A stretch of 64,000 nt of DNA, taken from Tortispora ganteri. Its lineage: Eukaryota. Position numbers and translations under genes: made by a program. The stretch spans positions 186,001 through 250,000 of the forward strand of contig PPNB01000008.1 of assembly GCA_003707115.1 (NCBI GenBank). Reading direction: 5' to 3'. This document shows positions 57,319-60,433 of the stretch, in pieces. Under the pieces are notes generated by a model. The model had not been told where the DNA came from. It worked only from the letters and a program-made list of their open reading frames with translations, and made no database searches. Positions within the stretch are counted from its first letter, which is position 1. Every line of letters begins with the position of its first letter.

Positions 57319-58098
57319 TCACCAGAAATCATCTTCAATATTTTCGGATGTGGTGAGATTAGACGTTTGTCGCATTGAATCTTCGTCAGCAAAGAAATCA
57401 TCATAAGCGGACTGTTGTTGCTTCTTCTTCTGGGCTTCTGCTTCTGCTATTTCTCGCTGCTTTTTCTCTCTTTCTTGCTGTTCCTTTTTCTTTTTGGCGT
57501 TCTGTTCGCGTTGGTAGTCGTTGCGCTCCTTTTGCAGATCCGGGAAAGATTCCTTTTTTGTCTTTTCAAGACGGTTAATAATTGCATTAGTGCGGGTTGG
57601 CACCAATATGCGTTTAACGAGCCGCGGGTTCTTGAACCCTACCTGTCCTGCAACCATACTTCCATCCTTGTGTAAATTTGTCCAAGGCGTGTATATTACG
57701 GTAATATTATCTATTTTGTTGCCTTGTATAGAATTTGCCTTCGTAAGTTGTGCACAGTCCTCGAGCACCTCCATAGGAATGTTCTTCCAATCGTCGTTCT
57801 CTTCGAGACGGAGATAAACATGCGCGGAAGAATGTGCATCTACATGGAACTATTCAGTTAGTCATTATCTTGGAATAAAGTAGATAATACGTACCCTGCA
57901 TTGTTAGTACACTGCCGAACCGCCCAGATCAACTACTACTTACCATACATCGATCGGAAGACCATACTTGATTAAAAGCTCGTCTAATTGTTAGTTTGTG
58001 CAATACAAAACCATGAATACTTACATACTCTCTTCCTTGTGCTTTCCCATATAAAGCTGGTAGCTTTTATTGTGTTTTGAAGTGAAATAATAGACCAT
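57319..58098 (-). CDS. JLP2: NFACT-R domain protein Jlp2/CCDC25, 213 aa; exons 58098-58029, 57983-57944, 57895 (1 nt), 57849-57319
   Basis: Spliced product MVYYFTS...[36 protein letters not shown]...DCAQLTKANSIQGNK...YTPW...GQVGF...EDDFW; 642 nt, frame intact. Confidence 0.92.
57850..57894 (-). other. JLP2 intron 3 (45 nt)
   Basis: GTACGT...GACTAAC-TGAA-TAG. Confidence 0.9.
57896..57943 (-). other. JLP2 intron 2 (48 nt)
   Basis: GTAAGT...TACTAAC-AATG-CAG. Confidence 0.9.
57984..58028 (-). other. JLP2 intron 1 (45 nt)
   Basis: GTATGT...AACTAAC...TAG; removal joins A|AC to give the conserved EN. Confidence 0.92.
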
Positions 58099-58234: not shown

Positions 58235-59401
58235 TTATGCAGAGGTCGAGCTTTGACCGGCCTCGCCGAGCGTCTCTTCGAGTGCCTTGAGAGCAGCATC
58301 CAACTGGTAGCTGTACGTGGACACAGAAACACCCATATGACCTAAACGAATATAATTCGCAGCTATACCTTTGATCAAACCGCCAGCAAGAAAAACACCT
58401 TTACTTGCAAGCTTGGGGATAACATCGGGGCCGGTCAGTCCATTAGGAAGATAGATAGTAGTTAAGCCGTGAGCCTGATCTTCTGACTTCGAGGGGATCT
58501 GCTTAAGACCCAATCTGGCAACAACAGCTTTGGCCTTGTTTGAGCCTTCAATATGAGCGGCAAAAGTTTTATCGATACCTTGAGCGAGGATCAGTTTCAG
58601 CGAGGCGTGTAGAGCTAATATGTTCTGCACTGCCTGCGTAGAGAAGTACATTGGTTTTCCGTCTTCGTTAGAGCGCATAACAGGTAGCCACTTCGCAAGA
58701 GAAACGTAGTATGCGTGTACAGGCGCCGTGCGATTCTCGAAGGCCGCAATAGCCCGATCCGAGAGCTGCAGAACCGACAGGCCAGCTGGCGCTCCCAGAC
58801 CTTTCTGCGAGGCAGTGAGAACAACGTCAAGATCCCATGCGTCAAAGCGAATCTCCTCAACGGCCACTGAACAGACACCGTCGACTACGATTAAAGTGTT
58901 TGGCGAGACCTTGCGGATGGCCAGAGCGAGGTCTTTGAGCGGGGACAGGACACCGGTAGAAGTGTCGACATGCGTGATGACGACGGCGCGGTACTCAGTG
59001 GCCTTGAGCGCCTCAACAGAACGGTCAACATCAGGAGCGGCACCAAGGTCAAAACGAACGTGATCCACTGAAGCACCGTAAGCGGCTAGACAGTCGGCAA
59101 ATCCATCCGAGAAATAACCGATATTGAGCACTAGGACCTTTTCAGAAGGTTGAATAAGATTAGCTGCAACAACATCCCAGCCTACAGTGCCACCGCCGCT
59201 GAGAATGAGAGGTTGGCCTTTGCCTGGAGTGTTGTCGAGAACCTGTCGAACCATTTTGAGGGTTTCTGAGAAAACCTTGACAAAAGGGCCGGCGACGTGC
59301 GGAACAGACGGAGAAGCCATCGCTTGTGCCACTGAATCGTGGATCTCTATAGGTCCAGGAATCATAGAAAATGTGTGAGAAGGCTGCGATGACTGTTCCA
59401 T
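58235..59401 (-). CDS. AGX1: Alanine-glyoxylate aminotransferase (class V PLP enzyme); first ATG at 59401, possible non-AUG extension to 59446
   Basis: MIPGPIE, GGGTVGWD, THVDTSTGV, VDGVCSV, TASQKGLGAPAGLS, RLGHMG. Confidence 0.93.
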   Translation of the reverse strand: MEQSSQPSHTFSMIPGPIEIHDSVAQAMASPSVPHVAGPFVKVFSETLKMVRQVLDNTPGKGQPLILSGGGTVGWDVVAANLIQPSEKVLVLNIGYFSDGFADCLAAYGASVDHVRFDLGAAPDVDRSVEALKATEYRAVVITHVDTSTGVLSPLKDLALAIRKVSPNTLIVVDGVCSVAVEEIRFDAWDLDVVLTASQKGLGAPAGLSVLQLSDRAIAAFENRTAPVHAYYVSLAKWLPVMRSNEDGKPMYFSTQAVQNILALHASLKLILAQGIDKTFAAHIEGSNKAKAVVARLGLKQIPSKSEDQAHGLTTIYLPNGLTGPDVIPKLASKGVFLAGGLIKGIAANYIRLGHMGVSVSTYSYQLDAALKALEETLGEAGQSSTSA

Positions 59402-59866
59402 GATGTGTGAAGCAATGAGACGAATACGGTGAGCCAGGATGGGCAAGCTCGGCGGTGATGCGAACTTAGTGGAAGTACGAGAAGATAATTAGCGCACTAT
59501 AGAATAATTTCTATAGGATCAAAAGCGTCGAGCAGACAAAGAGACTATGGCTATGAGAGTGTTGGTTTAGCAAGTCTCAGTGGAGTTCGATGTTGAGTCG
59601 GAGAAAACGTAGTCGAATATAGACGATCAGTCAGCAAAAGGGATTGGTAAGAAGGCCCACCGAAGCGATGAATCTTTAAAGGCTGAAAAGAGTGGGGGAA
59701 CCAATAAGTGAAGCCGAGTGGTTCATTTTAGGGCGGTAATAAAGTTCCTACCAATCACACAATACACCTGGTGTGAAATGCCCAGAACCCTGATAGTCGC
59801 CGTTCGACTTCACCTTGCAGCCGGGCTAATATTAAGGGAAACACACGCTGACGCTAGTATTCGAGG

Positions 59867-60433
59867 ATGTTGGTATTAGCATTGGGCGATGCGCATATTC
59901 CAGACCGCGCGATTGATATACCGGAACAGTTCCAAAAGCTGCTGAAACCCGGCCGAATTGGACTGACCCTTTGTTTAGGCAACCTTACAGACAAAGCGAC
60001 GTTTGAGTATATTCGCGGAATAGCCCCCCAACTGGAAATAGTACGAGGGGATTACGACTTGATGTCAGGTCTTCCGCAGACTAAAGTTGTCGCCACTGGA
60101 AGTCTCAGAATAGGCATCACACATGGTCATAACACCATACCGCGAGGCGACGCAGATGCCCTGCTAATATTGGCTAGACAGCTCGACGTAAACGTTCTCC
60201 TGTTCGGCGGAACTCATAAGTTTGAGGCGTACGAACTCGATGGCAAGTTCTTCTTGAATCCTGGTTCCGTCACTGGAGCTTACAGCACAGAGAAGCCCAC
60301 TGATAGTCCAGGCATAGAAACTGTCCCGTCGTTCTGCTTACTCGATATCCAAGGTACGGAACTGGTACTATACGTCTACAGCCTAGTCGATGGACAATTA
60401 AAAGTAGAAAGGATAAAGTATCGCAAAGATTAA
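59867..60433 (+). CDS. VPS29: Retromer subunit Vps29
   Basis: LGDAHIPDRA, CLGNL, VRGDYD, FLNPGSVTGA, PSFCLLDIQG. Confidence 0.96.
   Translation: MLVLALGDAHIPDRAIDIPEQFQKLLKPGRIGLTLCLGNLTDKATFEYIRGIAPQLEIVRGDYDLMSGLPQTKVVATGSLRIGITHGHNTIPRGDADALLILARQLDVNVLLFGGTHKFEAYELDGKFFLNPGSVTGAYSTEKPTDSPGIETVPSFCLLDIQGTELVLYVYSLVDGQLKVERIKYRKD

Follow-up and report, generated by a model that had tools for sequence, protein, structure and literature searches.

The closest described precedent for the leader considered here is the 6-phosphogluconate dehydrogenase Pgd1 of Ustilago maydis, whose cryptic PTS2 is translated by non-AUG initiation at AGG AUU with about 2% initiation, according to the accessible text of PMC7214817, which bears out the mention of a non-AUG PTS2 extension for this fungal enzyme in the preliminary description of the DNA studied here. 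The AGX1 gene of the yeast Tortispora ganteri, located in the window (the whole analyzed stretch of 64,000 nt from contig PPNB01000008.1), resembles Pgd1, as far as the accessible text goes, in several respects: the motif lies in the apparent 5' UTR near the AUG (39 nt in Pgd1 and 27 nt in AGX1), there is no upstream in-frame AUG, the motif is conserved in relatives, and a minor peroxisomal form would accompany a major cytosolic one, as measured for Pgd1 and predicted for AGX1. It differs in the enzyme, in the phylum and in the start, which is AGG AUU in Pgd1 versus a strong-context CUG/GUG, alternating with AUG between lineages, in AGX1. Moreover, Pgd1 has been tested experimentally, so that proof of such an arrangement so far concerns a different fungal enzyme only, whereas for AGX1 it is apparent from sequence in many moulds. 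The 6-phosphogluconate dehydrogenase gene of the window genome (L159, G000:C668) had no PTS2 in any frame within 500 nt upstream; its first exon is short, and it has an intron whose donor is GTAAGT.

The orthologous enzyme of Magnaporthe oryzae, AGT1, was reported in peroxisomes, and in the accessible parts of that report (PMC3338719) the targeting is assigned to a C-terminal QKA on the basis of a fragment of 46 residues, no signal was obtained with full-length fusions of the 386-aa model, and an upstream PTS2 is not considered. AGX1 of the window is without such a C-terminus. The mammalian AGT/AGXT is the same enzyme and is found in the peroxisome or the mitochondrion depending on the species (accessible parts of PMC4585086 and PMC3798809), but it is directed to peroxisomes by a non-canonical PTS1 at the C-terminus, in contrast to the N-terminal PTS2 behind a near-cognate start proposed for AGX1. 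Conserved non-AUG starts that have A at -3 and G at +4 and open an N-terminal extension, as predicted for AGX1, are described for cpc-1 of Pezizomycotina; unlike AGX1, it encodes a transcription factor under uORF control, with no organelle targeting (PMC5487733, accessible part). No PTS2 or non-AUG form of a fungal AGX1 was found in a search of mainly open-access literature, and none is mentioned in the accessible portions of PMC9133605, PMC9549241, PMC4580311, PMC11842775 and PMC3798809.

The AGX1 gene and its leader

AGX1 of Tortispora (Saccharomycotina, Trigonopsidales) occupies positions 58235..59401 of the minus strand and is intronless, coding for 388 aa, with the stop codon at 58237-58235. 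The product is a class V PLP-dependent aminotransferase (PF00266 match; 2bkw, yeast Agx1, E 2e-85), and the PF00266 domain, the full-length likeness to yeast Agx1 and the lysine motif TASQK mark it as a fungal alanine-glyoxylate aminotransferase, the sole match for this enzyme in its own genome. It is 95% identical to a protein of Tortispora caseinolytica annotated from the same Met. Around the ATG at 59401 the sequence reads cac atc ATG G, which places A at -3 and G at +4. As had already been noticed, the protein ends in STSA, which does not constitute a PTS1, and a canonical PTS1 ending (S/A/C-K/R/H-L/M) was present in 0 of 240 AGX1 homologues. A PTS1 acquired by read-through was ruled out, since only Ser-Ala-stop follows beyond the AGX1 stop codon. 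Three CTG codons of AGX1 fall into alignment columns occupied by Leu in 119 of 119 homologues, so CTG is decoded as Leu in this genome. About 465 nt, shared by both promoters, lie between AGX1 and a divergent neighbor at 59867..60433 on the plus strand (PF12850 match), presumably VPS29-like. The gene downstream of AGX1 (57319-58040, minus strand) is interrupted close to its start by three short introns, whose donors are GTAAGT, GTATGG and GTACGT and whose CTAAC branch sites lie a few bases before the AG.

The leader frame of AGX1 is closed by an in-frame TAA, read directly at 59489..59491 of the minus strand, and between this stop and the ATG there are 29 sense codons (59488-59402, minus strand) with no ATG among them. 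The last nine codons before the AUG methionine (59402..59428, minus strand) encode, in frame, the PTS2-like nonapeptide RIRLIASHI. The predicted start CTG at 59435..59437 of the minus strand (ccc atc CTG gct) sits three codons before the motif, has A at -3 and GC at +4/+5, and would add 12 residues to AGX1. A near-cognate TTG at 59444..59446 of the same strand (agc TTG ccc) shares the A at -3 and has C at +4, G at +4 being found in the CTG only; the other in-frame near-cognates before the motif are AAG 59467 and ATC 59440. A reading of the minus strand thus reproduced the ATG-free open frame of 29 codons, the nonapeptide at codons 59428-59402 and the A at -3 of both TTG 59446 and CTG 59437, all of which had been described before. 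No stable RNA structure was detected around the AGX1 starts (z -0.23).

With R, I and H at positions 1, 2 and 8, where R/K, L/V/I(/Q) and H/Q are allowed, a large hydrophobic residue (I) at position 5 and A, one of the permitted L/S/G/A, at position 6, RIRLIASHI agrees with PTS2, while Ile at position 9 fails the strict consensus, in which L/A is given for this position (accessible part of PMC4585086). A residue-by-residue comparison upheld the earlier claim that every defined position matched except the last, and the motif is classed as PTS2-like, not as a member of the strict consensus. RIx5HI is listed as the PTS2 of an Arabidopsis LACS in the accessible part of PMC9328179. Motifs ending with Ile were also found at 2 of 75 fungal AGX1 loci among the matches listed and in the homologous protein P0029, and Arg at motif position 3 occurred in none of the 75 homologous motifs listed. 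The motif would form residues 4-12 of the CUG form, with about 11 polar residues separating it from the part that aligns to 2bkw. It abuts the core Met, whereas the motif of homologous proteins begins 20-98 residues ahead of that Met, making the spacer the shortest seen and the linker only about 11 residues long.

PEX7 is intact in this genome (L006, 345 aa, E 3.4e-107 to 3w15_A). A thiolase of the same genome opens with an AUG-started PTS2 (Met-Asp followed by RLQSISNQL) and the malate synthase ends with AKL, which would be consistent with glyoxylate metabolism in peroxisomes. A consensus PTS2, RIRALTAQL, begins at residue 8 of another ORF (L151:2176-4086, minus strand, 636 aa).

The genome control consisted of the window and 400 kb of contig C1 (464 kb in total, about 5% of the genome), with 191 ORFs of at least 250 aa. 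In this control 34 of the 191 ORFs had at least 29 open codons upstream, so the length of the open frame alone is no evidence. An in-frame loose PTS2 pattern was present upstream of three of the 191 (AGX1 and two others), while the His-requiring pattern and a good-context CTG/GTG at such a position before the motif were each restricted to AGX1. Dinucleotide shuffling of the 180 nt upstream, repeated 20,000 times, produced the loose motif in 191 cases, the His pattern in 51 and the motif together with a good-context CTG/GTG in a single one. Since the PTS2 search patterns had been drawn up once the motif was known, both the genome and the shuffle rates are post hoc; conservation in other fungi provides the stronger test. 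That the motif resembles a PTS2 by coincidence, in a leader rich in pyrimidines, for which the two further ORFs with the loose pattern and the post hoc patterns might speak, is extremely improbable, given that motif and start signature recur together in the same gene across several fungal classes.

Conservation of the motif and its putative start codon in other fungi

The occurrence of R-I/L-x5-H-L/I in frame upstream of AGX1 in relatives, proposed earlier as a check, was indeed encountered in the protein set, which comprised the best 120 homologues. Sixty-four of these have at least 15 residues before the conserved M-S-x-Q methionine, and the annotation of the other 56 starts at the core Met and is uninformative on their leaders. 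Within the best 120, the pattern R-[LVIQ]-x5-[HQ]-[LAFIV], mostly as RLSLISRHL, was present in 56 of the 64 N-extended homologues, against a mean of 1.7 and a maximum of 7 matches in shuffled extensions, and 46 of the 64 fitted the strict consensus; the catalytic core gave a background of one match in 45,057 residues. The motif-bearing set includes Lipomyces, another early-branching yeast lineage, with RLAQLSSHL. The Lipomyces models (P0100 cluster) are either 389 or 427-429 aa long, and RLAQLSSHL/F is present in the longer group. Six partial models (P0043, P0050, P0061, P0122, P0163 and P0178) lack an initial Met, their sequence opening at the PTS2 or ahead of it, and P0043, P0169 and P0178 read K-L-A where P0032 has Met, as expected for a true CTG start. 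The initial Met of a database protein may stand for a CTG or TTG start chosen by the annotator, therefore AUG and non-AUG starts were counted on DNA only.

A scan of metagenome contigs with the conserved AGX1 N-terminal core yielded at least 112 loci. Among the matches listed, the motif was in frame at 75 of the at least 112 loci and missing at 37, which included short contigs, bacterial-looking genes, Candida-type yeasts and some moulds; some of these motif-less loci listed were fungal with full upstream DNA. Enough upstream DNA was available for 74 of the 75 motif loci listed, forming 42 clusters at 70% identity. An ATG was present within 14 codons before the motif in 15 of these 42 clusters among the matches listed and absent in 27. 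In 19 of the 27 ATG-less clusters listed, an in-frame CTG (14 clusters) or GTG (5 clusters) with a purine at -3 and G at +4 was located 5-11 codons before the motif. The same signature was found in 0 of the 15 ATG-bearing clusters among the matches listed, with a Fisher p of 7.7e-6 that overstates independence, since the clusters are related and the limit of 14 codons was set once the loci had been inspected. As controls in the 27 ATG-less clusters listed, the two other frames gave 0 and 1 occurrences of the signature and the 14 codons past the motif gave 0.

All 19 CTG/GTG clusters listed continue with GC (Ala) and 17 of them have A at -3. Among the matches listed, CTG or GTG was used in 19 of 21 Leu/Val-Ala pairs, compared to 69 of 305 Leu/Val codons downstream. 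Synonymous Leu and Val codons are avoided at the putative start, and selection for CTG/GTG at this position is evident in these other fungi. Upstream of the start, 13 of the 19 clusters listed had a stop and no ATG, three ran off the contig and three had an ATG 49-66 codons up; of the remaining eight ATG-less clusters listed, seven had an ATG at least 21 codons up and one had aag CTG tct. The 19 clusters listed span Leotiomycetes, Lecanoromycetes, Dothideomycetes and relatives of Aspergillus, as roughly assigned from the nearest named protein by tblastn score, and the conservation of the CTG/GTG start is accordingly drawn from fungi outside Trigonopsidales.

The CTG at 59437 of the window shares the conserved signature, having A at -3 and GC at +4/+5, while the TTG at 59446 does not; the distance of the CTG to the motif is three codons versus 5-11 in the moulds among the matches listed. 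The earlier proposal of a leaky near-cognate start upstream of the ATG, at either codon, was made independently of the cluster comparison and can be retained for CTG 59437, which fits the signature of 19 of the 27 clusters listed, but not, as the main start, for TTG 59446. The AGX1 extension most likely starts at CTG 59437, as the sequence comparison suggests, and not at TTG 59446, although the latter, lying outside the conserved signature, is possible as a minor start. As the main start, TTG 59446 was rejected: it has C at +4, and adding TTG and ACG to the search gained 0 clusters among the matches listed.

In the AGX1 tree the window protein was placed outside the well-supported Pezizomycotina clade on a branch of 0.95, with an unsure placement, hence shared ancestry with the moulds and convergence are indistinguishable. 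Such a long branch could also belong to a relic, in which CTG and motif are ancestral but dead, the mRNA starting below the CTG or Pex7 not binding; the non-consensus last residue, the missing spacer and the atypical motif position 3 point in the same direction. A neutral leader on such a branch would, however, be unlikely to retain R, I, I and H together with the frame and the CTG context, and the composite of CTG and motif arises only in the above-mentioned 1 of 20,000 shuffles, which makes a relic unlikely. The conserved feature is a real one: a PTS2-like signal behind a putative CUG start, of the Pgd1 kind, present in a minimal form in a budding-yeast lineage.

Predicted dual targeting and the possibility of a spliced start

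It is probable that a single AGX1 mRNA gives rise, by leaky scanning, to a CUG-started form with a PTS2 and to a cytosolic AUG form. A minority of scanning ribosomes would start at CUG 59437, where the strong context would compensate for the mismatch, and the resulting protein, 12 residues longer, would have the N-terminus Met-Ala-His followed by RIRLIASHI as the PTS2. Pex7 would bind this signal and carry the folded enzyme into peroxisomes, where AGX1 would convert glyoxylate and alanine to glycine and pyruvate, while most ribosomes would continue for 36 nt and initiate at AUG 59401, yielding the cytosolic enzyme. Inclusion of the CUG in the AGX1 mRNA, initiation at this codon and import by a motif ending with Ile are the steps that we infer.

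If this is true, AGX1 would follow Pgd1 as a second case in fungi of an enzyme relying on non-AUG initiation for its peroxisomal form, and the arrangement would predict the mode of glyoxylate handling in fungal peroxisomes by an enzyme without a canonical PTS1. In AGX1 the start codon itself is visibly conserved, as CUG/GUG and, in other lineages, as AUG, many fungal AGX1 gene models are probably cut short at the N-terminus, and the 36-nt leader represents an easily testable unit.

The start might instead be supplied by a spliced upstream ATG exon, as in Candida albicans, where the PTS2 isoform of Gnd1 arises by alternative splicing (accessible part of PMC3798809). The lone ATG of the intergenic stretch on this strand is located at 59726 in a good context, a CTAAT is present at 59492, and acceptor-like AAG and GAG sites are found at 59466 and 59449. 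This ATG opens an out-of-frame ORF of 16 codons (59676..59726, minus strand; strong context), which would be of consequence only for an AGX1 mRNA beginning above 59726. The hexamers beginning with GT between 59726 and the motif are GTTCCC, GTGGGC, GTCTAT, GTTTTC, GTCTCT, GTCTGC, GTGCGC, GTACTT and GTTCGC. GTAAGT, the enriched donor of this genome (5.1-fold before branch sites), is absent from this interval, as are GTATGG and GTACGT used in the neighboring gene, so the original statement that there is no canonical splice donor upstream was correct for GTAAGT-type donors between 59726 and the motif. Splicing would also offer no reason why relatives show selection for CTG/GTG preceded by A at -3, and a spliced start is very improbable.

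Mitochondrial-type extensions and upstream starts

Apart from peroxisomes, the extension behind CUG 59437 could target mitochondria, or both organelles, as was suggested earlier from its basic character and the lack of acidic residues. Such targeting has parallels: presequence-like extensions were found in 55 N-extended AGX1 homologues of Candida/Debaryomyces type (within P0198-P0315), with a His-type PTS2 in 0 of the 55 and one loose match, and a presequence-like tier exists in many moulds. A title cited in PMC4585086, of which part was accessible, indicates that a change of the PTS2 His can yield a mitochondrial signal. The first 30 residues of the predicted CTG form, however, carry a net charge of +1, and their hydrophobic moment is 0.45, compared to medians of +5 and 0.63 in the 55 presequence-bearing yeast homologues, only one of which is at +1 or less. 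The extension of the window does not qualify as a mitochondrial presequence, taken as Arg-rich, net positive, amphipathic and long enough, and the conserved features are the His and the R-x7-hydrophobic spacing, leaving the mitochondrial alternative weak and quite unlikely. Candida/Debaryomyces-type yeasts read CUG as Ser.

The tier in the moulds consists of a second in-frame CTG/GTG-Ala in strong context, 17-36 codons before the PTS2, at 14 of the 17 loci with sufficient upstream DNA among the matches listed (L008, L010, L016, L023, L025, L027, L029, L032, L044, L052, L059, L080, L086 and L088), against 0 and 2 of the 17 listed in the other frames. It opens an Arg-rich, acid-poor peptide resembling a mitochondrial presequence. 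Among the matches listed, loci of the ATG group often show an ATG or a CTG about equally far upstream. In the window, 20 codons of open frame precede the motif, none of them a CTG/GTG codon of the upstream tier, and, with the TAA at 59489..59491 closing the frame, the presequence-like tier appears to be absent.

Slightly favored, on balance, is a ladder of starts in the AGX1 of much of Ascomycota: a CUG/GUG for the presequence, a CUG/GUG (or AUG) for the PTS2 and a strong AUG for the cytosolic form. With starts of rising strength, one mRNA would feed three compartments and start-codon stringency would set the split; the Tortispora yeast would represent a minimal two-step version (CUG and PTS2 within 36 nt), and Candida-type yeasts would retain the AUG presequence only. 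Gene models starting at the last AUG would, if the ladder is true, miss the organellar forms. A PTS2-like RLAAFSRQM, outside the search patterns used, is present upstream of the core in a Mucoromycota-like AGX1 locus (L116).
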